A stretch of DNA of 64,000 nucleotides. Origin: a virus. Positions 27,759 to 64,000 of this stretch are shown here, piece by piece. Position 1 is the first letter of the stretch. Every line of letters starts with the position of its first letter. The stretch is from UHGV virus genome UHGV-1373641; one strand, written 5' to 3'. Made by a program: the position numbers and the translations under genes. Below the pieces are notes generated by a model. The model was not told the origin of the DNA. It did no database searches and saw only the letters and a program-made list of their open reading frames with translations.

Positions 27759-28880
27759 TTATGCTTTAAAGTTATATACTGGCTTAATAGTGAACAAGGC
27801 TTCCACCGATTGAAGATTGTTACGAATCTCTGATCCATCCTTGTATGCCATAGGGCTTTCGTCAAGAGTAGAAGTATTTACGCAAGAAGAATAAATACCT
27901 TCCATTTCATTTTTAAAATCATTCATATCAAGACTGCGCTTGGCTTCACCTCTGCTTAGTCTACGTCCAGCTCCATGAGGTGCGGAATAGTTCCAATCTT
28001 CAAGCCCTTTACCAAAACCAAAAATAATACCGTCTCTCATATTCAAAGGGATCATAAGAGCCTGTTCTTTTTTAGCGGAAACGGCTCCCTTGCGCAGCAT
28101 GAACACATCATTGTCAATACGTTCTATATAGTTATGAACGGTTTCATAAACATCATCTTTCTTAATCCCAATGTGTAGCATGATATCGTTAATGATCGCC
28201 TCACGATTCAAAGAGGCATAATATTTCATGATTTCCATATCATACATATATTCATCGAACATCTCCCCTGAAAGATACGCTAGATGTTTGGGGGTGCCCG
28301 GACATTCTTTAATAGCGACATTTTGATAATAAGTAGCTACTTCTTTTCCAATATTCCTAGAACCAGAATGTACGGTAAGGAAATAAGAAAAAGTACCATC
28401 GAAATTATCGGATTCCCCTATTTCAATAAAATGATTCCCTCCCCCCAAAGTCCCAATACTGTGCTCCGCACGAGCGATATTAACTTCATTACGACACGCA
28501 AGCATATTCAAATTGATGGCGCTAACCAATTCATGCTTGTCGTTACGAATATTAAATCCTGCGGGAATATGCTTTCGAATAATTCGATCAATTTCTTCAA
28601 AAAAGCTATTGTTAAGTTTATCGTCCAAAGTAAATTCACAGGAAAGTAATCCACAACCTATATCGACTCCGACAAGATTAGGAACGATTTTCTTGTTTTC
28701 GATAGTCATCGTCGTTCCAATAACGCATCCAGCGCCAGCATGTACATCTGGCATAATGCGAATCCTACTACCTTCGGTGAACTCTTGATTACACAATTCG
28801 ATAATTTGAGCCATAGCTGTCGGCTCAACATAATCCGTGAAAACCTTAGCTGTACTTACTGAGCCTTTTACTTCAAACAT
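27759..28880 (-). CDS. rtcB: RtcB family 3'-phosphate RNA ligase
   Basis: Motifs MPDVHAGAGCVIGTT, GGGNHFIE and HGAGR. 373 aa. Confidence 0.85.
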   Translation of the reverse strand: MFEVKGSVSTAKVFTDYVEPTAMAQIIELCNQEFTEGSRIRIMPDVHAGAGCVIGTTMTIENKKIVPNLVGVDIGCGLLSCEFTLDDKLNNSFFEEIDRIIRKHIPAGFNIRNDKHELVSAINLNMLACRNEVNIARAEHSIGTLGGGNHFIEIGESDNFDGTFSYFLTVHSGSRNIGKEVATYYQNVAIKECPGTPKHLAYLSGEMFDEYMYDMEIMKYYASLNREAIINDIMLHIGIKKDDVYETVHNYIERIDNDVFMLRKGAVSAKKEQALMIPLNMRDGIIFGFGKGLEDWNYSAPHGAGRRLSRGEAKRSLDMNDFKNEMEGIYSSCVNTSTLDESPMAYKDGSEIRNNLQSVEALFTIKPVYNFKA

Positions 28881-29527: not shown

Positions 29528-32458
29528 TTATTTTCTATAAAATTCTCCCCTCCATCCTTCGGCCTTTACTGGCAGACCTTCCGCCCATTGAGGAAGCTTG
29601 CACATGATATTTTCAAATTCCTCGACAGACCCAAACCCTTTAGGAACCTCAGCAATGATTTCATCGTGAACATGAAACACTACCGGATAGTTGGCTTCTT
29701 CGAGATTGAACATCGCATTCACCATCAGATCTCTACAGAAAGCTTGTGTAACATTTTCTGAAAGTATGAGATGGTTAAGCGGCCTTCTCACAAATTGTTT
29801 TTCTGGCGTCAAGGTCATCGCCGTAACAAGCTTCTTGAACGCTGGCTTTTCTGGAGTAGACCATGCCATCTCCACATCTTCAAGTTTAGGCTCGAAGTAG
29901 AAGAGGAACCTGCCACTAGGGAGCTTCATAAGGAGGAATCTCTTATAGTATTGGAATGATACTCCACGATAAGAATAAATTCCGCCCTTATTCGTCATAG
30001 CCATGACAGCAGCTTCAACGAGTTTGTGCCAAAGCTTAACCGTCATTGGGTGCCCGTCTCTCCATGCAGCAATAATCTTCTTTCCTTCCTCTTCATCAAT
30101 GCCCATTCTATCAGCTCCAAAGCGAAGGAACGCGCCATAACCACCTCCGTATCCACAGTTATGCACAATGCGTGGACCGCAGGATGTATGTATCATAAAC
30201 CTGCTTTTATCTCCACAATTCAAAAGATCATAAACTTTTTCTATTTTAGTATAACCATCTCTATTAGATAAAATGCTCCCAGTAAGAATAATTTCATCGC
30301 TATCATCTTTTTTGATAAACTTTAAAATCGCCATATTTATTTTATTATAGTCCTTAATAACGGCTTCACTCACTTTAATATTCAGATAATTTTGAGCTGT
30401 TGAATACTTAGAAAAAATCGTAGCTAAAAAGACGATAATGGAGCATACATATTTAACTTTATCTTCAAGACTCGTGTTCCTTAAGCTTTCACCCAAGTAT
30501 ACATAAACACCTTTTCTACTTTTAGAATCAACAAAGGATACATTAAAGTCATCTTCGTCAAAATCGGAAAGAATTACTTCAATTCCCATTTCAGCTATAG
30601 TTACTTTTACTGGGTATTTCTTCAAACTATAAATAATTTTATCTTGAACTTTTGAGATTTGATAACTAACCCAACTAGAGAATATTTGATATTGCTCGCT
30701 AGAATAAACTTTCCCATCTCCTAGCCATTTACACAATTCAATAGCTGCATCGGAGTCTATCCAAATATTTTCATCCATCAACCATTTTTGATCAGGCGTA
30801 GATTCTACTCCCAAAAAATTAACGATTTCTTTAATACCTTGGCAATATGCTCCATCTGTCAAACACCAGTTTTCTCCATCCCATACATAATCATCTTTAG
30901 TTATGTCGACGATTTTTTTTATTCCATAGCTCGTATAAACCATTGTATCCGCAGAGAAGCAAGCCAACGTAGCCGTCTTACCTACTTGACGCTGCTTCTT
31001 ATCCACATCTTCATATTTCACCCCATAGATAGTCGTAGCTGCAACTTTATACGGGTCGAGGCCATCCCTAAAACCTTGAAGAACATACTCTTCGCCAGCG
31101 AGATATGCCAATGCTCGGGCTTCAATCCCACTATAGTCGGCACAGATAAAATCGTATCCTTTTCTAGCGTGAATCATTGCGCGAAGGCAATCGGAGGCAA
31201 GGACTTTAGGGTCTTTCCAATACTGCTGGATAAGATCTAAATCCCCGCTAGCTGCAAGTTCGATATCCATTTCACTGATATCATAATTATCCAAAGGCTT
31301 GGAACCTTCGGGTATATTCATATTATTTGTTGAAGGTCTAGTCAAATTTTGCGGTTGAATAAGAGCACCAGCAAATCTTCCCGTAGAGGCTCCATGATAT
31401 ATCATCGTTCCATGCGCCCTGCCATCATAGCACGAAGTACAAAGCATGGTCTGATATTTTGCCGTAGAAGACATGGCAATAGTCTGACGAATCTCAAGGA
31501 ATCTACGAACATCGGAGGGGAGATCAGTCCGTTCAAGAAGGTCGGAGATAGCTTGCTTGCTTGCCGAATCAGTATCAACCCCACGAGATTGAAGCCATTC
31601 AATAATAGACTTGGAAGACTTCATGGTAGATACAGCACCATACGTAATCTCGGAAGCTTCCTCCGTCAAAATATCTTCTACTTTATTAACCATATCCATA
31701 ATTTTGACCGCGTGAAACCTGTCAATTCCTACTCCACGGTCATTGATCGTCTGGTCGAGCCGCCACACTTTAAGCTCCCGCTCAGGGATAGGAGGAAGCT
31801 CCATAAAAAGAACTTCTTCCGCAACCACGTCCTGTCGACAATATTCAACATATCGTTTAAACATTGGCTCGTCACAAGGATAGACAATATATTGATGGTA
31901 GTTTTTAATGGTAGGAATGCCACCTTTTGAAAGCACGGCATAGACGTACTCTTGAGTAGCCTTAGCCTTTTCGGGGTCTGGAAATGCGGAAAGTTCGGCT
32001 TTACGGAATTTCCTAGGCTTTGACATTTTCATCATCAGCTTATGCCCTTCATTATCCTTCTGAGGAGCGTCTTTTCGCCAAACCTTTACCGCTTGTTCCA
32101 GTTTACGGGGAAGGTTGCACATAAGGGCCTGAGACATCGTGCATCGAATTTTCTCTAATGGCAATGGCTTAAACCAGAGAGGCTCCATCTTGAACTTCCA
32201 AATGGCTCTTTCGAAAGGGGCGTTATGTGCTGCAATCTCTTCACAATTATTAATAATATCCTGCAATTCATCGTCGCTCAATTCAGTATCAAGAAAATGC
32301 CTATATGCCGGAGCTACCCATACACGAGCCTCCTGTCCACATATACGGACGGCAAGCATCATCACCTCAGTATCAGGGTGCGCAGCATATGCGTAAGCTC
32401 CACAGGTTTTAATATCTACAGGGGACCTCGTTTCAAAGTCAATTACGGATTTCATCAT
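29528..32458 (-). CDS. Family A DNA polymerase with N-terminal DnaQ-like 3'-5' exonuclease, interrupted by an intein
   Basis: Exo I IDFETRS. Motif A CADYSGIEARALAYLAGE. Motif B RQVGKTATLA / CGYGGGYG split by a 268-aa insert. C-terminal HVHDEI motif C. Confidence 0.85.
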   Translation of the reverse strand: MMKSVIDFETRSPVDIKTCGAYAYAAHPDTEVMMLAVRICGQEARVWVAPAYRHFLDTELSDDELQDIINNCEEIAAHNAPFERAIWKFKMEPLWFKPLPLEKIRCTMSQALMCNLPRKLEQAVKVWRKDAPQKDNEGHKLMMKMSKPRKFRKAELSAFPDPEKAKATQEYVYAVLSKGGIPTIKNYHQYIVYPCDEPMFKRYVEYCRQDVVAEEVLFMELPPIPERELKVWRLDQTINDRGVGIDRFHAVKIMDMVNKVEDILTEEASEITYGAVSTMKSSKSIIEWLQSRGVDTDSASKQAISDLLERTDLPSDVRRFLEIRQTIAMSSTAKYQTMLCTSCYDGRAHGTMIYHGASTGRFAGALIQPQNLTRPSTNNMNIPEGSKPLDNYDISEMDIELAASGDLDLIQQYWKDPKVLASDCLRAMIHARKGYDFICADYSGIEARALAYLAGEEYVLQGFRDGLDPYKVAATTIYGVKYEDVDKKQRQVGKTATLACFSADTMVYTSYGIKKIVDITKDDYVWDGENWCLTDGAYCQGIKEIVNFLGVESTPDQKWLMDENIWIDSDAAIELCKWLGDGKVYSSEQYQIFSSWVSYQISKVQDKIIYSLKKYPVKVTIAEMGIEVILSDFDEDDFNVSFVDSKSRKGVYVYLGESLRNTSLEDKVKYVCSIIVFLATIFSKYSTAQNYLNIKVSEAVIKDYNKINMAILKFIKKDDSDEIILTGSILSNRDGYTKIEKVYDLLNCGDKSRFMIHTSCGPRIVHNCGYGGGYGAFLRFGADRMGIDEEEGKKIIAAWRDGHPMTVKLWHKLVEAAVMAMTNKGGIYSYRGVSFQYYKRFLLMKLPSGRFLFYFEPKLEDVEMAWSTPEKPAFKKLVTAMTLTPEKQFVRRPLNHLILSENVTQAFCRDLMVNAMFNLEEANYPVVFHVHDEIIAEVPKGFGSVEEFENIMCKLPQWAEGLPVKAEGWRGEFYRK
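30158..30961 (-). mobile_element. Intein inside polymerase motif B
   Basis: Block A CFSADTMVYT. Terminal IVHN followed by Cys. Internal LCKWLGDG resembles a single degenerate LAGLIDADG motif. Excision restores KTATLACGYGGGYG. Confidence 0.7.
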
Positions 32459-40140: not shown

Positions 40141-40686
40141 ATGATTATAAAAGACCTGCGGCATTGCCCTGAAAAATACGATGTCATTTACGCGGACCCG
40201 CCTTGGAGCTATTCCAATAAAGGTCTTAATGGCTCGGCAGAAAAACATTATTCTACTATGAACATAAAAGATATTGGGGAGCTTCCCGTAGAATCCATTA
40301 GTAAAGACAACTGTGTGCTTTTCATGTGGATGACATATCCATTAATCAAGGAAGGTCTTTGGTTGATGGAAAAATGGGGATTCAAATATAAGACAATCGG
40401 TTTTCAGTGGATTAAGCTGAATCGCATTAATAAAAAACCTTTCTTCGGATTGGGCAATTGGACTCGCGGAAATTCGGAGCCTTGCTTTATAGGAGTGAAA
40501 GGCAAGATGGCTCGGAATTGCGCTGGAGTACATCAAGTCATAATGTCTGAGATTGAGAAACACTCTAAAAAACCAGATGAAGCCCGCCACAGGATAGAAC
40601 AGCTTGTCGGCCCGGATTGTAGGAAAATAGAGTTGTTCGCTAGACAGGAATACAATGGTTGGGATTGTTGGGGAAATGAAATCTAA
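40141..40686 (+). CDS. MT-A70 family N6-adenine DNA methyltransferase (DPPW motif)
   Basis: VIYADPPWSYSN catalytic motif. 181 aa. Confidence 0.75.
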   Translation: MIIKDLRHCPEKYDVIYADPPWSYSNKGLNGSAEKHYSTMNIKDIGELPVESISKDNCVLFMWMTYPLIKEGLWLMEKWGFKYKTIGFQWIKLNRINKKPFFGLGNWTRGNSEPCFIGVKGKMARNCAGVHQVIMSEIEKHSKKPDEARHRIEQLVGPDCRKIELFARQEYNGWDCWGNEI

Positions 40687-45949: not shown

Positions 45950-46520
45950 AAAAGGTGATCCAATTCCTTTTAACTCAGAAAGTTTCCGTTTAAAACTCTT
46001 TTAAAAGCCGAAATTTCTTTCTCTTGGAAATAATTGACATTTTTATTTTGGGTTTCTTTTAGTTTTAATTCGGAAACTTTCTGAGTTAAAAGAGTTTAAA
46101 TTGGAAAATAAAAAAGTCAATTAAATCGGTCGATAAGAAATTCCGGCTTTTAAAAGGAATTAAAAGAGTTTTAAACCGTAAAGTTTACAAAAGAAACCCA
46201 AAATAAAAAATTGAGTTATTTCAACTACAAAGAAATTTCGGCCTTTAAAAGAGTTTTAAACGGAAAAGAAAAGGAAATGGAACTCCAAAAGTTTACATAA
46301 TGCCCAAAATGGGACATTCGGAGCTTATAATCTTTCTTAAAGTTTCTTTTAGACAGAAAACTTTCCGAATTAAAACTAAAAGAAACCAAAAATAAAAAAG
46401 TCAATTAAATCGGTCGATAAGAAATTCCGGCTTTTAAAAGAGTTTTAAACGGAAACTTTACGAGTTAAACCTTAAATAAAAAGTCTAGTTATTTCAACTA
46501 CAAAGAAATTCTTAGAGTTA
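45950..46520. repeat. AT-rich iteron region (candidate replication origin)
   Basis: Motif GAAATTYCGGCYTTTAAAAGAGTTTTAAAC in 3 direct copies plus 1 inverted. Exact 45-bp repeat AAAAAAGTCAATTAAATCGGTCGATAAGAAATTCCGGCTTTTAAAAG at ~46114 and ~46397. Several other inverted repeats. Confidence 0.5.
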
Positions 46521-54619: not shown

Positions 54620-54688
54620 GTGTGGGAAGCGGGATTGAACCGCCAACATATACCTTTGTATTGTTCTACCAAATTGAACTACCCCACA
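54620..54688 (-). ncRNA. tRNA-like element (Asn-tRNA-related acceptor, D and T arms) with the anticodon arm replaced by a 12-nt mini-hairpin; candidate Y-RNA-like tRNA mimic or tRNA pseudogene
   Basis: Acceptor TGTGGGG/TCCCACA. D arm GTTC-AATTTGGTA-GAAC. T arm GGCGG-TTCAATC-CCGCT. Anticodon region is ATACAAAGGTAT (4-bp stem, 4-nt loop). No encoded CCA. Lies 10 nt 3' of the Ro60-like gene on the same strand. Confidence 0.5.
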
Positions 54689-54701
54689 CACACATCAATT
54701 T

Positions 54702-56222
54702 TTATCTGATACGAGCATACCTTTCCGAGCCAAGGATGTCAAGCATAACTTCGATAGGTTTTTTGTTTTGTACTGCCATCTTGAACGCAGAAGGCGACAG
54801 ACCGGAAACTATCGTTGCTCCCACCTCATCTTTCTGGACAGGAAGATTTCTTCCTCGACTATTCACATTCCAGAATACGATGGTAGGCAGCGAGTATCCA
54901 TGTGCTCGGAAAGATTCTTTCATGTATTCAAAAGCTGTCTTCGAATAGTCCGTAGATTCATTAAACTCCATATCGGAAATGATATACAGAGTTTCCGGAA
55001 GGTCTTCTTGCTTCAATTTATGCCTCATGGCGGTGGAGAGAATCAAAGAAAACACAGCTTCAATGTTCGTGCCATAGCCCCAATTGGCGGAAACCATGTT
55101 CGAGAGTTTTTCTCGCATCGTATTTCCGTAGATTTTTACAAGCTCCGGTTCGGTACTGAAAGTAAAGAAATGGTCTTTGAACGGGCCTTTGCTTCTTTCA
55201 GCGAAATACAATCCAAGAGAAATAGCCACGTCAAGAGCCGTGACACTTGAAGATTTGGATACTCGGGACAGCATAGAGCCACTGGTATCTACTACGCAAA
55301 TAGCATTTTTGTTTCGACCAGTATAGTCCGGCAACGCTCTCCACATTTCATCGTAGATATCTTCATATTCCTCTCCGTCCCGCTGAACACCATAAACAAT
55401 GTCGTAGGGGTAAAGAACGCTCGAATTTACCTTTTTCTTGCCGCGTTTAACAGCTTCGGTATATTCTGAAAAACCAAAAGGGTCATTTCTTGTAAATGCC
55501 TTTGTGTGTTTCATCAAAGCATAGGAAGGGAGCTTGCTATAATCAATGTCGCTCCATTTTTTCGAGCACATTTCCTGTTCGACAATATTCAGATGCTTTC
55601 GGATATTTACGATGGTCTTGCGGCATTTCTTCTCGTTCCCATCGAAAATATCGTCCACAAGTTTCTTTGCGAGGTTTTTTCTCCATTGAGAGGACACACT
55701 GTTCTTTAGCGGAAACCATTTCGCGCAAAGAGTCAGATTTTCGTAATGTCCGAGATTGATTTTACCTTCATCGAGGTCGAGAATCGTTTTCACGAAATTA
55801 ACCATAAAATCATATATGGATTCGTTACTCGGATAGATAGCCTCCATAATCCAGAAAAAATCATCCCATCTGCCATATTTGGGGATTTGTCCGATGTTAT
55901 AGATGATATCGTTTCGGTCGTCAGTATAACCGTTTTTGATAATATCATACAACATACAGACCCTAAAAATGTCCCTTTCACCCTGTCCGCCGCGAACATC
56001 ACGCAGATAGAAGAGGTTTTTCCTTGCCAAACTCTTATTTTCTTCTAATGCTTCCTCAAAAAGCTCCTTCGCGGAATTGAGGGAGTCTCGTTTAGCGGAG
56101 GCCAATGCGAAAAAGTTCAGATTGGCATTATCGGAATCAGAATAGGTAAGGCATCCGTTTTCCGTAACAGAATTAAGATTTTTGTTAAATGCCGAAATAA
56201 AAGGCGAAATTTTCGTACTCAT
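54702..56222 (-). CDS. Ro60/TROVE-like protein with C-terminal vWA domain (DUF2828-like)
   Basis: 506 aa. MIDAS VVDTSGSMLSRVSKSSSVTALDVAISLGLYF and later TLYIISDMEFNES align from memory with human Ro60 AVDVSASMNQRVLGS... and DVFIVFTDNET. N-terminal ~300 aa helical (TROVE-like). Confidence 0.5.
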   Translation of the reverse strand: MSTKISPFISAFNKNLNSVTENGCLTYSDSDNANLNFFALASAKRDSLNSAKELFEEALEENKSLARKNLFYLRDVRGGQGERDIFRVCMLYDIIKNGYTDDRNDIIYNIGQIPKYGRWDDFFWIMEAIYPSNESIYDFMVNFVKTILDLDEGKINLGHYENLTLCAKWFPLKNSVSSQWRKNLAKKLVDDIFDGNEKKCRKTIVNIRKHLNIVEQEMCSKKWSDIDYSKLPSYALMKHTKAFTRNDPFGFSEYTEAVKRGKKKVNSSVLYPYDIVYGVQRDGEEYEDIYDEMWRALPDYTGRNKNAICVVDTSGSMLSRVSKSSSVTALDVAISLGLYFAERSKGPFKDHFFTFSTEPELVKIYGNTMREKLSNMVSANWGYGTNIEAVFSLILSTAMRHKLKQEDLPETLYIISDMEFNESTDYSKTAFEYMKESFRAHGYSLPTIVFWNVNSRGRNLPVQKDEVGATIVSGLSPSAFKMAVQNKKPIEVMLDILGSERYARIR

Positions 56223-56541: not shown

Positions 56542-57012
56542 TTAATTGAAGAAACCTTCCGGAGATCCGAAAGAATCTTCACCTCCTAGATTAAGTTCTC
56601 CCTTCTTCCTAGCTACTCGGCTACGAGAATCCGGCGTGAGTCCAAACCTTTGTAGAAGGGTATCAACTTGCTTTTCTGCTTCCATAACAAGTTTCGCAGT
56701 AGGATTGTTTTTCCTGATACCTGACGGCGTAATATACGTCTCGCCGCCTTGGGCTTTCAAATCCCTGCGGAGTTTAAGCATCCTATTCACCGCATAAACT
56801 AGGAGTTCCAAAGCCAGAGAGTATTCAGCGTGGTCAAGGCCCTTCTGTGCGATAACATCAGCAATCGTGTTATAAATATCTTCCGAGGACATTTTGTCCC
56901 AATTGATTTTTCTTAGCGGTCCCTCAGCCAATGGAACGTCTACTCCATGCTTCGTAGAATTGTATGTACCATCTTGCTTATGGGCTTCGATTGATTTAGT
57001 TTGACGGCGCAA
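56542..57012 (-). CDS. Terminase small subunit, P27 family
   Basis: 156 aa. Motif LLQRFGLTPDSRSRV matches the P27-family GLTPaSR signature. NPTAKL motif. Confidence 0.6.
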   Translation of the reverse strand: MRRQTKSIEAHKQDGTYNSTKHGVDVPLAEGPLRKINWDKMSSEDIYNTIADVIAQKGLDHAEYSLALELLVYAVNRMLKLRRDLKAQGGETYITPSGIRKNNPTAKLVMEAEKQVDTLLQRFGLTPDSRSRVARKKGELNLGGEDSFGSPEGFFN

Positions 57013-57344
57013 TGATTTTCTCCTTTTTTAGATTAAATTTATTAAAAATATTAAGCCATAAACGAATTTTTGTCAATAGTTTTATTAAAAATTCGTTTAA
57101 AAAATTTACATGAATAATTACAACCGGATAAAAGCTCAGAAATCGAAAAAAATGTTTTTTTGAGTCAACGACGGTACTATAGCGCGTTTCACGTGAAACA
57201 TCCGACCCTCCCCCTCCCATCTAGTTGAAATCATTTACAATTTAAAATGGTGTTTCACAAAGAATTGTATGCAATATTAATACCAAGTTGTAAGTAGTTG
57301 ATTGTATTAATAGTTATTTCTTGAACAATCGTTGAAAATCCCCG

Positions 57345-57500
57345 TGCACGACCGTCAACAGCCGTCAACAAGCGTCACAAACTGTCAACGATCGTCATCT
57401 ACAGTCAACTACTGTCAACGATCGTCATCTACAGTCAACTACTGTCAACGATCGTCATCAGGTGTCATTGACTTGGGACCATCGGGACCATCATAGAATA
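57345..57500. repeat. CGTCAAC-type repeat array including 30-bp tandem ACTGTCAACGATCGTCATCTACAGTCAACT x2.6 and GGGACCATC x2
   Basis: Direct reading. 57381..57459 carries the 30-bp units. Upstream GTCAACAGCCGTCAACAAGCGTCAC. Confidence 0.6.
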
Positions 57501-57593: not shown

Positions 57594-57622
57594 TTGACAG
57601 TGATTTAGGAGTTGCGTAGAGT
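57594..57622 (+). promoter_or_regulatory. Sigma70-like promoter of the plus-strand small-gene block
   Basis: TTGACA-17-TAGAGT upstream of the GNAT gene. Confidence 0.4.
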
Positions 57623-58693: not shown

Positions 58694-59104
58694 ATGAAAG
58701 TTATTGACATTCGAAAGGTTATTGAATCCCTTCCCGCCGAACGCTCCGCATGGCGCAGGGGAGTTCGGCAGTACGCTATGGACCTTATCGAAGATTTACC
58801 TGATTTTCAGGATCTTAACCCTGAAAATAGTCGTGGGGTTCTTCTTAATGGCGCGGTGTCGTGGAAGGAATGGGCTTATAGCGGGTATGGGCTTGTGTAT
58901 GACTGCGCAATTGCTGAAAGGTTGTGCACGCCGTCCGAGCTTCACAAGAAACGCGGCGGGGAACTTGAACCTAACTTACACGAATCTTGGCTTGACGTTG
59001 AAGCTCGTGCCGTAAGTCAGGCCGCCGCCGCGATTAAGGTCATAGTTTCCGTAGGACAACTTAAGGCGGGTAAAAAGCTCCTGTTGACAGTAAGTCCTTT
59101 TTAG
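58694..59104 (+). CDS. Hypothetical protein
   Basis: 136 aa. AAAGAGGTTATCACCATG context and promoter TTGACA-17-TAGATT at 58632. Confidence 0.4.
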   Translation: MKVIDIRKVIESLPAERSAWRRGVRQYAMDLIEDLPDFQDLNPENSRGVLLNGAVSWKEWAYSGYGLVYDCAIAERLCTPSELHKKRGGELEPNLHESWLDVEARAVSQAAAAIKVIVSVGQLKAGKKLLLTVSPF

Positions 59105-59158
59105 TCTAGGGTCAATTTCAACACAACAACACTTTAACTACATAAAGAGGTTATTATC

Positions 59159-59477
59159 ATGCACAAGCGTATTTATCTTTCCGACTTTATGGAAGCCTTT
59201 GACGACCACGGGCTCAATGATCAATTTTCCCCCGCCGCTCTTGAAGCCCTGTTTGAATTCTTTGAAGAACTTGAGGATGAAACCGGGGAACTTGTGGAAC
59301 TGGACGTTTGTCGCTATCTGTTGCTCTTTTACGGAATATGACAGTCCGCAGGATTGCGCCGAAGATATGTTTCTTGACGTTGAAGGCATGGAGGATAGGG
59401 ATATCATTAGCCTTCTTCAAGAACGAACTATTGTTATCCCGCTTAAATCCGGCGGCATTGTGATTCAGAATTATTAA
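59159..59477 (+). pseudogene. Small acidic protein gene split by a -1 frame change at a T-run (59325..59332)
   Basis: ORF 59159..59341 (60 aa) continues in the +1 frame as ...EYDSPQDCAEDMFLDVEGMEDRD... to 59477. Conserved AAAGAGGTTATTATCATG start. Confidence 0.3.
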
Positions 59478-59575
59478 AAAAAAGCTCTTGACTCTGATAA
59501 AAGAAGGGTATATACCCTTCTTTAGAATGATGCAGGAACTTTTCAAAAATGAGCTTTAACGAAAGAGGTTTTATC

Positions 59576-59932
59576 ATGGGCTGGACAGTATCGAACATCG
59601 TAGCGGATACCAGAGCCAAGGCCGTAAAAGCTGATATTCTGTTCCAAATGAGTGGAAGCAAAGTCATTTATGTATCCAACTGCGCCTTATCCACTATTTT
59701 CGTAGCATATTGCGAAAAAGGGGAAGTCCGCGGCATCGTGGTAAAGGCTACAGCAAAGAAAAGCTTTTACAGTAGCTTGCGGGAAGTTACAACAAAATTT
59801 ATCCCGCTGGAAATGGGGCCTTTTGATTACGCTTGCCCGAAAAAATTTCTTGACATGATCACGCCTCCCACGGTACAAGAAAAGTACTTTCTGAACTGGT
59901 ACTTGAACGCTTGCAAGTATCACGGGATCTAA
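59576..59932 (+). CDS. Hypothetical protein
   Basis: Start MGWTVSN after AAAGAGGTTTTATCATG. Promoter TTGACT-17-TATACC overlapped by palindrome GAAGGGTATATACCCTTC. Confidence 0.4.
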   Translation: MGWTVSNIVADTRAKAVKADILFQMSGSKVIYVSNCALSTIFVAYCEKGEVRGIVVKATAKKSFYSSLREVTTKFIPLEMGPFDYACPKKFLDMITPPTVQEKYFLNWYLNACKYHGI

Positions 59933-59978
59933 CTAAAAATTCTTTTCATATCCTGTTAAATTTAAAGAGGTTATCAAA

Positions 59979-60962
59979 ATGAGAAGTTACGTTACTGTTA
60001 AAGCTCCTAAGTCTTACGTCCGGGATTTCTATAACCGCATGATCACAGAAAAGGGGGTTGACTTCCTTTTTCGTGGGATTTATGCAGAGGTGAACTTTCG
60101 TCTTGAGCATGGAGATCCTGTTTACTACTTGCACCGGGCTTGCATCGTGAAGAAGGCAAGCGACGATAGGGAAACCTATACCGTATTCAATTATGATACT
60201 CGAAAGAATGAAAAGATCTCTTTCGTAGATATCCTTGACTTTGCCTTTTGGGATGAGGCCGGGGCAAAGGCCGTATCCGACAAGCTCTTGAATCGCTTGA
60301 CTTTTCTGCTCGACATGGACGGGGGTGCTTGTCTTGATGACTGGATTGCTCCTCTTTTGCCGTTCCTGAACATCGAATGCCCGAATTGCCAAGAGCGCGG
60401 ATTTATTGACGTTTGGGACACGATTCTTGATCTTACTGTGAAGTATGAAGTAAATCAACCCGTTGAATCCTACTTTGAAAAGCGCAAAAATGAGATCATG
60501 AAGGATATAATGGATCTCTACTGTGGTCACAAGGTAGAATCTGTATACAAGTACAGCGATATTGAAATGGTTCCTTGCTTCCACGATTTACTCCCCAATC
60601 TGCATATTGGAGATATCTTTGCTGGCTCATGGGGCTACAATATGACCATTCCCCATATTTTCCAGATAGTTGCATTCTCTGATTCTGGGAAGTGCGCTAT
60701 CATGAAGCAAATACCGTACCAGCCAGATCCCGAAAGCCCTTTCTCTGGGACAGGAAAAATTCAAGGTCTGGAAGCAAGTACCATAGCTTATATCCGGGAA
60801 GAAGCAAAGAAAAACGGCGGCTTTAACCCTAAGAAATTCATAAGGAAAAAGATTCAGGTGACAAATGGTGTTGCATATCCGCAGTACTATATCGCAACCA
60901 GCAAAACAACCCTGTTCAAGGCGAATGACGGGGATGCAATCCCCTATAACCTTGTGGATTAA
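59979..60962 (+). CDS. Hypothetical protein (327 aa) with paired Cys motif CPNCQERG
   Basis: AAAGAGGTTATCAAAATG start context. Largest gene of the block. Confidence 0.4.
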   Translation: MRSYVTVKAPKSYVRDFYNRMITEKGVDFLFRGIYAEVNFRLEHGDPVYYLHRACIVKKASDDRETYTVFNYDTRKNEKISFVDILDFAFWDEAGAKAVSDKLLNRLTFLLDMDGGACLDDWIAPLLPFLNIECPNCQERGFIDVWDTILDLTVKYEVNQPVESYFEKRKNEIMKDIMDLYCGHKVESVYKYSDIEMVPCFHDLLPNLHIGDIFAGSWGYNMTIPHIFQIVAFSDSGKCAIMKQIPYQPDPESPFSGTGKIQGLEASTIAYIREEAKKNGGFNPKKFIRKKIQVTNGVAYPQYYIATSKTTLFKANDGDAIPYNLVD

Positions 60963-61119
60963 TTCAATTTTCAATAAGTAAATCAATCATTCAATTACTA
61001 AATCACGTCAATACGATTTTTCTACATGAAAAAGTATTAACGTGATTTAGTAATTTCTGTATTGTGTCTTTGTTGGCAACGGGGAATATTCCTTGAACAC
61101 TAAAAAAGAGGTTACTATA

Positions 61120-61386
61120 ATGTTTATTAAAGATTTGAAGGACGGCGTTGTTTTTCGCGTTGAGGGTGATATTCCTGCGGAGTTTAAGGGCGGTGATATT
61201 GTCAATGCTTGCGATCGTGTGGAAGGTAACTCTTGCGTAGGCTTGACTAGCGTAAAGATTAGCCGAGCTAAGGGCCTCCCCCGTGGCTGGAAAACTATGT
61301 GCGATTGCTACGTAGCGCAATGGGACGGCCAGCACAGTATCTTTGTTTTTGTCGAAAACGAGCCCATTTTCCCGGACTGGTATTAA
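61120..61386 (+). CDS. Hypothetical protein
   Basis: Start MFIKDLK after AAAGAGGTTACTATAATG. Confidence 0.4.
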   Translation: MFIKDLKDGVVFRVEGDIPAEFKGGDIVNACDRVEGNSCVGLTSVKISRAKGLPRGWKTMCDCYVAQWDGQHSIFVFVENEPIFPDWY

Positions 61387-61403
61387 AAAGGTAGGTCGCG
61401 AAT

Positions 61404-61682
61404 ATGAAAAGTTATTCTGAGATTGTTATGTCGCACATAGACGGCGTTATGAGGGATTGCGCTAAGGGCAACTTTAGCAACGATTTTGCTATTCAAAAAA
61501 TTAAGGCTGTGGTAGAGGCATATACCGTATATAAAAACTGTCTTGCAAAGGTAGAGGGTGTAAAGGACCGTGCCGCAATGATTCGTGCGGAACTGAGGGA
61601 AGTAGAAAGAGACTTTGACGCGGAGTGCCATGAGCGCGACGACGCGCTTGAGGCTCTTGATTCCATGCTTGACGGTATATAA
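61404..61682 (+). CDS. Hypothetical protein
   Basis: 92-aa ORF, RBS AAAAGGTAGGTCGCGAATATG. Confidence 0.35.
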   Translation: MKSYSEIVMSHIDGVMRDCAKGNFSNDFAIQKIKAVVEAYTVYKNCLAKVEGVKDRAAMIRAELREVERDFDAECHERDDALEALDSMLDGI

Positions 61683-61776
61683 CGGATTCTAATAAAACGG
61701 GAAATTTCTATTTCCCGTTTTAAACTGGACTCGTTATAACAGCCTTTGAAAATCTGAAAAAAGAGGTTATTCTATT

Positions 61777-62499
61777 ATGGAAAGTAGATTTTTTGGTCGT
61801 CGGTTCTCCCCCGTCAGTACTTTGCACATGATTAAAGAATACAAGGGAATGCGTTCCTATCATGAGAAAACGCCAGATAGGAAAAACTATATTCAGGGGC
61901 TAGGCGTATATATTGGAGATCCGTTTGCTAAGGGCAACTCCAAACTTGCAAAAAATATTCTTATATTTGACTTGCTTGCTGTTGATACGTGCCTGAACTG
62001 CGCCGATTGTGCGGGGTTTTGTTATGCTCGGAAGGCGCAACGGCAATATGCCCCAACTTATAACAAACGGCTTTTCCATACGTATCTTGCCTTCAATGAC
62101 CTTGCGTGTCTTGAACGTATCACATCGGATTCATTGAAAAAGTCCGACCGTCCTTTTGTGCGGATTCATTCCTCTGGTGATTTTGTTTCACAAGCGTATG
62201 TCAATATGTGGAAACGGATAGCCGATAAATTCCCGAAAAAGCGTTTCTACTTTTATACGAAAGTGTCAGAAATTTTTGACTTTTCGGAATTTGTGGCGCT
62301 TCCCAATGTGAACATGGTCGAATCTGTGTTGCCGGATGGATCTATCAACTTTGGGGATGAATCCTACATTCAGGAGAAAAGTCAAATATTTGGCTATCAT
62401 ATATGCCCATATGGTAGGGAAGGCTATGCCCCGGTTCACTGCGGGGATGAGTGCACGCTTTGCATGGAAAAGCCGCATATTTTGTTTAAACTGCATTAA
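61777..62499 (+). CDS. Cys-cluster protein (CLNCADCAGFCYA)
   Basis: 240 aa. N-terminal C-x2-C-x2-C-x3-C cluster and C-terminal CGDECTLC. Preceded by terminator 61695..61724 and AAAGAGGTTATTCTATTATG. Confidence 0.4.
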   Translation: MESRFFGRRFSPVSTLHMIKEYKGMRSYHEKTPDRKNYIQGLGVYIGDPFAKGNSKLAKNILIFDLLAVDTCLNCADCAGFCYARKAQRQYAPTYNKRLFHTYLAFNDLACLERITSDSLKKSDRPFVRIHSSGDFVSQAYVNMWKRIADKFPKKRFYFYTKVSEIFDFSEFVALPNVNMVESVLPDGSINFGDESYIQEKSQIFGYHICPYGREGYAPVHCGDECTLCMEKPHILFKLH

Positions 62500-62513
62500 T
62501 TCAGATAGTTAAA

Positions 62514-62538
62514 GGCGGAAGGGATCTACCCTTCCGCC
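62514..62538 (+). terminator. Intrinsic terminator
   Basis: GGCGGAAGGG-ATCTA-CCCTTCCGCC hairpin. Confidence 0.5.
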
Positions 62539-62656
62539 TGTTAGTAGTTTCTTTGTATTACATGATGCAAGGGCTCTTTTGTTATATCTGTATCAGATAT
62601 TCTATAAAGGGAATCTTGTATCTTGTGGTATAAAGAAAGGCATCTTTGCGCATGTG

Positions 62657-62770
62657 CACGGTACAGCTTGAGCACGGTACAGCTTGAGCACGGTACAGCT
62701 TGAGCACGGTACAGCTTGAGCACGGTACAGCTTGAGCACGGTACAGCTTGAGCACGGTACAGCTTGCCCG
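62657..62770. repeat. Perfect 16-bp tandem repeat CACGGTACAGCTTGAG x7
   Basis: Direct reading; units at 62657, 62673, ... 62753. No spacers. Confidence 0.85.
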
Positions 62771-63059
62771 TATCCATGAGAAAGAAAAAAGACGCTCACA
62801 AATGCCGATTTAAGAAGCGATTTATTGAAACGTAAAGGATAACCCATGAAAGAAACAAAAAGGCCGCATAATCGATTTATGAAGGAACAAAGGGATAGGC
62901 AATGAAACATAACACTATCACGAAAAGAAAAGCATGGGCGGCGTCTAATGTATAAGCTCGCGTCTTTGCACAGTCGTGCCTCACCTTGCGGCGTCCCGCT
63001 CCCGCATCTGTGGGCGCGCTCTTGCTCTGTACCCGTGAAGCAACATTGGTTGCGTGTAC

Positions 63060-63125
63060 AATCAATCTATTCTGATTGTGCAATCAATCAACCTACCTTG
63101 GTTGAGCGAGCAATCAATCAAGGTC
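63060..63125. repeat. Three spaced copies of GCAATCAATCAA
   Basis: Direct reading. Confidence 0.4.
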
Positions 63126-63135
63126 GCGTGCGCTC

Positions 63136-63335
63136 TAATACAAGGTGGGGGACTCGATCCAAGCTAACATTTTTGGGGCAGGTGGGGAATGCCAGCCGAG
63201 CTAACGTAAACGAAAGAGGTGGGGGATGCGAGGCAAGCTAACATTTTTGGACGAGGTGGGGATCTCGATCCAAGCTAACATTTTTGGGACAGGTGGGGAG
63301 TATTTTCGGAGCTAAAATTTTTTCATAAAATAGAA
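63136..63335. repeat. Five degenerate ~38-bp direct repeats (AGGTGGGGR-N8-10-AGCTAACATTTTTGG)
   Basis: Copies start near 63143, 63182, 63221, 63258, 63294. Confidence 0.6.
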
Positions 63336-63396
63336 AATTTTGTTGCATGAAAACTCAAAGTAGGGTAGGTTGATCTTAACACAAGGAGATGAGGTA

Positions 63397-63885
63397 ATGA
63401 AAGATAACTCGGAAACTCGTCATTTCATAGGATACCTTCACACGCATAATATCACAGGTGTTATCATTGGTGTTGATTCCAATGAAATTCTTGGTTTCGT
63501 AAAATCGTTTGTAACCAATCGCCGGGACAGAGTTAAAGCGGGGATGCTTGAGGTTTTTAATTCCAATAAAGGCGAATTTGAACCTGCTGTGATGCTCGTA
63601 GAAAAGGTAAAGTTCTCCTTTAATTTTGAAAACACGAAAAAGTATTGGAAGAGTGGAGGGCGTGAGATTTTTATATATAGGTCCAGATTACCTTATAGAG
63701 GAACTCCGTATTTTGTAAAAGAGAATGGTGCTTTGAGTGATACGCGGATGCAAATGTATATCAGAAATTACCGCGAAGCAAATAACGGTGCAAATCATGG
63801 AAGAACAAATCAATGGATTGTTCCTCCGGGAATTTTGGGTGGTGAGATATGGAGGCAGAAGCGAAAAGAATTTAATAAATCATAA
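63397..63885 (+). CDS. Hypothetical protein
   Basis: Start MKDNSETRHF after AAGGAGATGAGGTAATG. Confidence 0.35.
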   Translation: MKDNSETRHFIGYLHTHNITGVIIGVDSNEILGFVKSFVTNRRDRVKAGMLEVFNSNKGEFEPAVMLVEKVKFSFNFENTKKYWKSGGREIFIYRSRLPYRGTPYFVKENGALSDTRMQMYIRNYREANNGANHGRTNQWIVPPGILGGEIWRQKRKEFNKS

Positions 63886-64000
63886 AATCACGAAGTCATA
63901 AAATCACGAAGTCATAAAATCACGAAGTCATAAAATCACGAAGTCATAAAATCACGAAGTCATAAAATCACGAAATCATAAAATCACGAAATCATAAAAT
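63880..64000. repeat. 16-bp tandem repeat TCATAAAATCACGAAG x7 (last copies GAAATC variant), running off the window end
   Basis: Direct reading. Confidence 0.85.

Follow-up and report, generated by a model that had tools for sequence, protein, structure and literature searches.

The 64,000 nucleotides of the UHGV virus genome UHGV-1373641 analysed here (the window, to which all positions and strands refer) end in a crowd of tandem repeats, with a further array at 57.3 kb. This raises the question of what such arrays are: sites selected for their sequence, parts of a replication, partition or packaging system, or spacers that expand and contract. An earlier note on this DNA had described a cluster of unrelated arrays flanking a block of small genes and had proposed protein titration, terminal repeats, and partition-like or replication elements. 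We consider it probable that the arrays are untranslated spacer segments within an early accessory small-gene region of a phage. They fall into two repeat classes: young perfect arrays (class A), which we read as minisatellites, and older degenerate repeats with conserved cores (class B), which we read as binding sites.

Firstly, we surveyed the window for repeats. Tandem Repeats Finder (TRF) recovered every array that had been described. An exact-period scan for perfect arrays, with 3 units and 50 nt as the minimum sizes, returned only two in the 64 kb, both in the last 1.4 kb, which brings the perfect-array density to 0.32% of the window; no unit of any array has a dispersed single copy elsewhere in it. 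Array 1 (62656-62766, + strand) consists of the 16-bp unit GCACGGTACAGCTTGA repeated 6.9 times with 100% matches, and array 4 (63880-64000, + strand) of the 16-bp unit TCATAAAATCACGAAG repeated at least 7.6 times with 99% matches and cut by the window end; the two sevenfold 16-bp arrays of the earlier note thus stand. So do its spaced short copies, which are GCAATCAATCAA at 63080 and 63110 and ACAATCAATCTA at 63058. Its five degenerate 38-bp repeats are indeed five and degenerate, but their period is 37 bp (TRF 63143-63299, 4.2 copies, 70% matches; five units over 63143-63323, + strand). Likewise, the array at 57.3 kb exists and holds a nested perfect 30-bp repeat of 2.6 copies (57381-57459), but its basic period is 10 bp (57351-57459, 10.7 copies, 69% matches), with a GTCA phase that extends over 57351-57470, about 13 turns. 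The arrays do not flank the small-gene block; they lie inside it, because the run of small + strand genes in relatives reaches 10 kb or more beyond the window end and includes additional arrays.

Secondly, we compared the arrays among about 30 distinct contigs from JGI, ENA and Logan assemblies (designated by L numbers). The sample names of these relatives are human-gut metagenomes, and their assembled size is 85.8-90.1 kb. Copy number varies between them. Where array 1 is spanned, it has 6.9 copies in the window, 7.9 in L009 and L042, 7.6 in L011, 4.9 in L010, 4.3 in L020, 2.3 in L040 and 1.3 in L003, L006 and L017, while in L016 it is deleted along with 62.70-63.31 kb; the array is dispensable. 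The 1.3-copy allele reads GCTTG-AGCACGGTACA-GCTTG, a 5-bp direct repeat with its copies 16 bp apart, which looks like the seed expected for slippage. In L001, L036 and L044, a diverged homologous 17-bp unit, GCATGAGCATAGATGCA, is expanded at the same site. On this evidence we read array 1 as a hypervariable minisatellite in an untranslated leader.

Array 4 behaves in the same way. It starts at the stop codon of a gene for a 162-aa early protein (63397-63885, + strand, with the 37-bp repeats on its upstream side) and occupies the space up to the gene for a 26-aa hydrophobic peptide seen in relatives. L011, L016 and L018 have a single copy, AATAAATCATAAAATCACGAAAAAAGG, which contains AAATCA twice (an AAATCA...AAATCA microhomology); other relatives have 1.9, 2.2, 3.2 or 3.9 copies, and L042 at least 12.2. 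Unit variants with G or A occur within the arrays, and the final units of array 4 in the window show the G-to-A variant. Arrays 1 and 4 both fold worse than shuffled controls (z +1.8 to +3.0) and are unstructured as single-stranded DNA. The closest comparison is offered by L042 (JGI 3300045988, Ga0495776_078666, 87,965 bp), in which, across window positions 58777-64000, all 4,992 comparable bases (3,879 bp ahead of array 1 plus the 1,113 bp from array 1 to array 4) agree with the window. L042 differs only in the two arrays: it has one more copy of array 1 and another mix of G-type and A-type units in array 4, in which it ends at 12.2 copies. This is either real micro-variation or two assemblies of one genome that resolve the repeats differently.

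Perfect arrays also occur beyond the window end. Relatives carry a 15-bp array, ACGAAGAGTTTATCT, of 1.9-7.9 copies, which separates a TTGACA...CATAGT promoter from the ribosome-binding site of a gene for a 331-aa early protein (L009 10571-11566, about 1-2 kb past the window end). Within this gene lie a perfect 18-bp repeat encoding REANIQ, of 3-4 copies, and a 15-bp unit, both in frame. The copy number of these in-frame repeats differs between relatives, so that the protein has variable low-complexity segments. The coding units are thus 15 and 18 bp long, and the noncoding units 10, 16, 17, 26, 37 and 48 bp, with one exception, the 15-bp unit in the 5' untranslated region (UTR). Units that are identical or nearly so and lie head to tail, copy numbers that vary down to absence, and a local origin with flanking partial repeats are what we found for the perfect arrays, and we take them to be viral variable-number tandem repeats.

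How much of this variation could arise during assembly? At least 15 contigs end in array 1 (L001, L002 and L025, which are both ends of one contig, L005, L014, L019, L026, L035, L036 and L043-L049), and gaps of 100 N lie inside array 1 in scaffolds L034 and L041, with another in array 4 of L041. Elsewhere, L042 ends in array 4, L024 and L037 start in a 48-bp array, L018, L038 and L039 start in the 37-bp array, and L010 and L011 start at the 57.3-kb arrays; the ends thus follow whichever array (16-bp, 17-bp, 48-bp, 37-bp or 10-bp) is long in the local sequence. The array lengths at contig ends (30, 55, 71, 127 and 140 bp) track common assembler k values, and arrays at or above k are therefore lower bounds; the states to be relied on are the one-copy alleles and those arrays below k in length that a contig crosses from flank to flank. 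That the arrays are assembly artefacts altogether is nevertheless very improbable. Such a reading could invoke the way in which copy numbers and breaks follow k, and L042, otherwise identical to the window and different only in its arrays. Against it, arrays built from identical units turn up again in JGI, ENA and Logan, whose assemblies stem from many samples and from more than one assembler. The earlier note had taken absence or collapse in independent assemblies as the sign of an artefact, and this recurrence does not bear that out. Arrays that do not reach k are crossed completely, flanks included, and De Bruijn assemblers err by collapsing tandem repeats, not by creating them. The arrays are not a CRISPR (clustered regularly interspaced short palindromic repeats) array either, as the earlier note had held: the units of arrays 1 and 4 stand head to tail with no spacers and are unstructured, variation in the 37-bp units is confined to 11 + 3 positions, Rfam gave no CRISPR-DR match at E<=1, and no cas-like PHROG or Pfam match was found among the annotated open reading frames (ORFs).

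The same contig ends bear on a second possibility, namely that the arrays mark features of linear virion DNA: boundaries of a terminal repeat, a packaging site, or a T5-like injection stop about 5-6 kb from an end near the small terminase gene (terS). In T5, the pre-early small-gene block has three untranslated repeat regions, including nine direct repeats; T5 and its relatives keep these regions of the pre-early (first-step-transfer) block in conserved order and content, with paired DnaA boxes and a long terminal repeat (Davison, bioRxiv 10.1101/866236). The likeness is that of a large lytic siphovirus with tRNAs and its own DNA polymerase, which carries direct and inverted repeats and palindromes in large untranslated gaps between small non-conserved early genes. 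In addition, the phased array at 57.3 kb adjoins terS, two contigs (L010 and L011) end there, and the cluster at 62.5-63.4 kb lies about 5-6 kb downstream of it. However, ends are scattered over five unrelated arrays and other contigs span these, a pattern that fits assembly breaks better than one physical terminus, although a collapsed terminal repeat may lie behind it, and those at 57.3 kb are only two, both within repeat arrays. An 88,206-bp contig (L002, L025) begins and finishes in array 1, so that its map is circular through this array. Moreover, the arrays are hypervariable and deletable, unlike the T5 regions, and DnaA boxes are not enriched (5 matches in the window against 6.2 expected, none in 57-64 kb). 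The large terminase gene (terL) was not found in the window, in the 10 kb downstream (L009) or in the 9 kb upstream (L031). The terminal repeats proposed earlier thus find little support, and we hold any such role in virion DNA to be improbable.

We then consider the setting of array 1, between the GP88-family gene (61777-62499, Pfam match) and the 37-bp repeats. The gene is directly followed by a terminator-like GC-rich hairpin with a weak U-tract (62513-62539, + strand, RNA fold) and then by a long imperfect hairpin of about 90 nt (62548-62638, + strand, RNA fold). The latter folds with -65.2 kcal/mol as + strand RNA against -44.2 as - strand RNA (z -8.9), a difference accounted for by G:U pairs, and 10 orthologs and paralogs preserve it, with 2 compensatory pairs and numerous one-sided changes from G:U to A:U or G:C. 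This strand bias and conservation point to a + strand transcript. The hairpin resembles what we take to be the RNase III processing sites of phage early RNAs, and by this analogy it is possibly such a site or a small RNA. Downstream of array 1 lies a mini-ORF, MKETKRPHNRFMKEQRDRQ, with an AAAGGA ribosome-binding site (62847-62906, + strand, from sequence reading and alignment), which is the second of three tiny ORFs near the array and the only one open in all relatives; it is also open in a paralogous module (MKEKKRPQKRFMRE). A GC-rich structured segment follows (62936-63140, + strand; RNA fold z -3.7 for the + strand and -2.35 for the - strand), whose consensus fold shows wobble and compensatory changes and which contains, within 63058-63121, three CAATCAATCA-type hairpin modules (copies at 63059, 63081 and 63111). 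In L003, L011, L014, L024, L026 and L034-L037, the CAATCAATCA stretch is expanded to arrays of 26 bp (2.3-3.8 copies) and 48 bp (2.4-3.4 copies). Rfam at its gathering threshold returned tRNAs only, and at E<=1 only matches of microRNA-precursor type, which merely flag long hairpins. We also noted, around array 1 and the three tiny basic ORFs, the mutually complementary segments GGCATCTTT (62639), AAAGACGCT (62788) and GGCGTCT (62940); over 62639-62946, these permit alternative pairings, an attenuator-like layout.

Thirdly, we examined the class B repeats, of which the 37-bp units are the first set. A strict register analysis showed that AGGTGGGG occurs five times at exact 37-bp spacing (63143, 63180, 63217, 63254 and 63291) and belongs to an invariant bipartite core, AGGTGGGG-N11-AGCTAA(C)ATTTT, in which the 11-nt and 3-4-nt linkers vary. 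The units stand at about -45 to -225 relative to an early promoter, TTGCAT-N17-TAGGTT followed by GATCTTAAC (63343-63371, + strand, assigned by eye against consensus matches and paralogs to the TTGACA-N17-TAG(A/G)TT set that serves the small genes), and just upstream of this promoter lies an A/T-rich, UP-element-like inverted repeat, AAAATTTT...AAAATTTT (63311-63341), found by sequence and with a weak hairpin-type Rfam match only. Most relatives have 4.2-4.4 units and others 2.8; L005 and L018 have a second sequence type. The units belong to a module made of the hairpin, the array 1 site, the mini-ORF, the CAATCAATCA stretch, GGTCGCGTGCGCTCTAA, the 37-bp units, the A/T tract and the promoter. 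In L010, L011 and L016, a diverged paralog of the whole module precedes another early gene; L016 is without the module at the window locus and has the paralog, while the window has only its one copy. Among 2.9 million viral contigs, the 37-bp motif array is restricted to this lineage, a motif match in L030 being a chance match inside an ORF, and none was found in 185,579 bacterial and archaeal genomes. Most likely, to judge from this arrangement, the 37-bp units are multi-site protein-binding DNA, that is, upstream control sites of the early promoter cassette. Three other roles were considered and set aside. As tandem promoters, the units have a block spacing unlike the sigma-70 or sigma-54 consensus on either strand (by eye); as RNA hairpins, they show no structure (z +1.1 and -1.4); and as a CRISPR-repeat mimic (an RNA anti-CRISPR), they have a by-eye likeness of the unit ends to type II-A, with no Rfam or genome support.

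A replication function deserves a closer look at this locus. Iteron arrays are known from lambda ori, P1 oriR/incA and lactococcal theta plasmids, and the 37-bp repeats, with the A/T-rich inverted repeat, could form an iteron-type origin bound by the 162-aa protein, the outer arrays acting in copy control as in P1 or F. The order of repeats, A/T-rich tract, gene and second array is that of such a system; the repeats share one orientation and a conserved core, and none of the genomes seen is without a copy of the module. Several observations speak against this reading. The flanking arrays have units of unrelated sequence, and the period of 37 bp is about 3.5 helical turns. No Rep or other initiator homolog was found nearby; the 162-aa protein matches no Rep family and indeed has no Pfam or PHROG match, it forms only 9 clusters among 5.8 billion proteins, all within this phage group, and its AlphaFold model (7 sequences) is unusable, with a predicted local distance difference test score (pLDDT) of 36.5. 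In L034-L037, a 99-aa gene stands between the 37-bp repeats and the 162-aa gene, the segment is deleted in L016 (with its paralog elsewhere), and the module precedes different early genes in different genomes. Finally, a stronger origin-like region adjoins the primase gene: 45.85-47.08 kb is a 1.2-kb noncoding stretch after that gene with the lowest GC content in the window, and it contains 10 copies of GTGATCC/GGGATCACA, which face both ways about an A/T-rich core; the whole window has 14 such copies against 5.9 expected. It also holds 22 of the window's 175 GATC sites and dispersed repeats of 60-70 bp at 46086-46510. We regard 45.85-47.08 kb as the best candidate for a replication origin, and an origin at the 37-bp repeats as a distant prospect; the replication element of the earlier note has little in its favour. 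A DNA methyltransferase is encoded at 40141-40686.

The second class B set is the 57.3-kb array. The GTCA core is kept at exact 10-bp phase in nine of nine genomes, while the flanks and the number of turns (9-26) vary. The array lies in a promoter-free gap of about 520 bp between a divergent terS promoter (57076, - strand) and an early promoter (57594, + strand), 340-460 bp upstream of terS, and this adjacency together with the phased motifs is what one would expect of a pac/cos recognition site. The likeliest reading of this layout is a protein-binding array presented on one face of the helix, with the small terminase as first suspect. Protein titration, which the earlier note had offered for the arrays in general, is plausible for these 10-bp-phased repeats and for the 37-bp repeats with their conserved core. 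The terS-proximal gap also bears young perfect 40-bp sub-arrays in L003 and L011. These read CTCTGGAAGC/CTCCCGATGT in L011 (1-98, perfect 40-bp repeat of 2.5 copies) and GTGTCATNAT in L003 (4564-4699, 40-bp repeat of 3.1 copies), and the 10-bp phase is retained in this gap even where the unit sequence changes.

Near this array, at 57185-57200, lies CGTTTCACGTGAAACA, a perfect 14-bp palindrome that matches 15 of 16 positions of what we take to be the chromosomal ParB/Spo0J parS consensus, TGTTTCACGTGAAACA. It is the single parS-like site that could support a partition function, in which the arrays would be the centromere-like sites of a plasmid-like phage. It lies outside the arrays, the units of which are unrelated to parS, and its only occurrences are those in the window and in contig 150955 (L006/L013); at this spot, five other relatives carry an unrelated allele that has palindromes of its own. 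The annotated ORFs, which leave about 5 kb of the genome uncovered, include no ParA, ParB, Rep or integrase, and the gene content is that of a lytic phage. We therefore consider partition, too, to have little support and a most improbable role for the arrays. By analogy, the parS-like site could let the phage use the host ParB, a use reportedly seen for phi29.

Taken together, we infer from this pattern how the arrays arise and what they may do. Class A comprises arrays 1 and 4 and the 30-bp, 15-bp, 26/48-bp and in-frame 18-bp arrays. These would be born from local sequence, by slipped-strand replication or unequal recombination between direct repeats of 5-6 bp, and would then expand and contract quickly. 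The phage carries genes for a gp2.5-like single-stranded DNA-binding protein (SSB), an exonuclease and a Holliday junction resolvase; in T7, such SSB, exonuclease and resolvase functions fit recombination between short repeats. Class A arrays sit in a putative leader RNA after a processing-type hairpin, in an intercistronic gap, in a 5' UTR or in frame within a protein, and they would persist because these are places where a change in length is tolerated. Their length-tolerant positions and the frame kept by the coding arrays form the pattern of a repeat-generating process filtered by selection. The probable effect would be an altered leader or intercistronic length that tunes the expression of neighbouring early genes, which we regard as the most likely role of class A; neutrality is the null. 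Class B would be older, its cores kept as multi-site protein-binding DNA while the rest has drifted.

Some of our observations weigh against this interpretation. Part of the apparent variation in copy number is technical and set by assembler k. Lineages that diverge by 5-10% in the flanks of array 1 share an identical 16-bp unit there, and in most populations this array seems to be long; selection could therefore act on the sequence itself, as a binding site, and not on length alone. For class B, no binding protein was identified for the repeats, and every genome examined retains at least one copy of the module, a retention that hints at an essential role. In addition, the labels "early" and "transcribed" are drawn from promoter consensus and gene layout.

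The points about array 1 lead to the reading in which perfect arrays are selected, sequence-specific multi-site platforms, either DNA or unstructured early RNA, which titrate or recruit a host or phage factor with copy number as the dose. It would explain the identical units of array 1 between diverged flanks, arrays long enough to break assemblies in most samples, their consistent strand, lack of structure and leader or intercistronic positions, and the 15-bp repeat, which has at least 1.9 copies in every relative. Conversely, natural single-copy or deleted alleles exist (L003, L006, L017, L016, L011 and L018), a different 17-bp unit occupies the array 1 site, no unit has dispersed copies, and PHROG and Pfam, with which the ORFs were annotated, identified no DNA- or RNA-binding protein next to the arrays; recombination between co-circulating phages can account for the identical units. 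A sequence-specific function of the perfect arrays is, in our judgement, rather unlikely. Slightly more doubtful still is a special form of it, in which Borg-like arrays of the early region are selected as unstructured multi-copy RNA or DNA platforms that sequester a host factor (for instance a defence protein or one that binds RNA), the copy number and the switch between 16-bp and 17-bp units reflecting an arms race.

Borg elements provide the closest described phenomenon, in their perfect tandem repeats. These repeats are nucleotide-perfect, of local origin and flanked by partial repeats; their unit number varies between close relatives, sometimes to absence, and they collapse or break short-read assemblies; genic units are divisible by three and most intergenic units are not; and their share of Borg genomes is 0.29-1.02% (Schoelmerich et al., PLoS Biol 2023, PMC9879509). 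The phage arrays share the perfection, local origin, partial flanks, copy variation, genic units divisible by three and assembly breaks, and their density in the window, given above, falls within the Borg range. They differ in that the carrier is a bacterial virus of about 88 kb and not a giant archaeal element, in that they are confined to about 12 kb of the early region whereas Borg repeats are genome-wide, and in that the phage has no clear adenine bias (25% A in array 1, 50% A in array 4). A looser parallel is found in eukaryotic viruses. The SV40 early control region has 21-bp and 72-bp repeats. JC polyomavirus is described as having a hypervariable control region (PMC9144386). Common to both settings are short units of G-rich or enhancer type that are duplicated in tandem ahead of an early promoter and vary between isolates; these eukaryotic viruses have known transcription-factor sites, and the likeness is one of analogy only.

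The genome around the arrays, as judged from its genes, is that of an uncultured lytic siphovirus of the human gut with 86-91 kb of DNA, of which the window is a portion of about 64 kb. Searches of GenBank phage DNA, in near and distant modes, gave no match to the window, and the portal protein has at most 39% identity to that of any deposited phage. The GP88-family protein has no relative in the bacterial and archaeal genome collection, and since the 37-bp motif array is absent from such genomes as well, there is no clue to a host or prophage and no host repeat that would be mimicked. The genes for tail fiber, tape measure, major head and portal proteins occupy 1-21 kb on the - strand; NrdD/NrdG, RtcB ligase, a family-A DNA polymerase, the gp2.5-like SSB, the exonuclease, helicases and the primase are encoded at 22-46 kb, and the Holliday junction resolvase and an endolysin at 47-52 kb. 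The replication and recombination gene set is, on these matches, T7-like. Five to six tRNAs lie at 53.7-54.7 kb, followed by a Ro-like DUF2828/DUF7788 protein (54702-56222, - strand; PHROG label 'RNA-binding protein') and terS (56542-57012, - strand). Beyond 57.6 kb, every gene is small, on the + strand and preceded by its own promoter, TTGACA-N17-TAG(A/G)TT (consensus matches at 57594, 58053 and 58633), then GATCTT and a AAAGAGGT-type ribosome-binding site, a layout from which we infer that this accessory region is transcribed early, by a host RNA polymerase of Firmicutes type.

Some further features of this genome were observed. The distance of about 36 kb between terS and the portal gene is an unusual split of packaging genes. 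A weak tRNA-like Rfam match (54621-54688, 33.8 bits), not called by ARAGORN, lies beside the Ro-like gene and the tRNA cluster, and the RtcB ligase gene (27759-28880) and the Ro-like protein recall the bacterial RNA-repair modules of Rsr, Y-RNA and RtcB; by this analogy, the tRNA-like element might be a Y-RNA-like partner of the Ro-like protein. In the ORF of the family-A DNA polymerase (29528-32458), two separated polymerase-family stretches enclose an endonuclease-family match (residues 735-810), which suggests an inserted homing endonuclease or an intein.

For this phage group in human-gut metagenomes, the arrays repeatedly break or mis-join contigs and leave copy numbers uncertain, and with at least 15 contig ends and 3 scaffold gaps in arrays, its "complete" genomes need long-read checking. 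Repeats of the Borg type, best described in archaeal elements, are now seen at similar density in a bacterial virus as well, where they occupy intergenic and in-frame positions of the accessory early region. The 37-bp and 10-bp-phased motifs are concrete candidate sites for regulators or for the small terminase. If the arrays tune or protect early expression, they would offer a lytic phage a simple and reversible route of adaptation.

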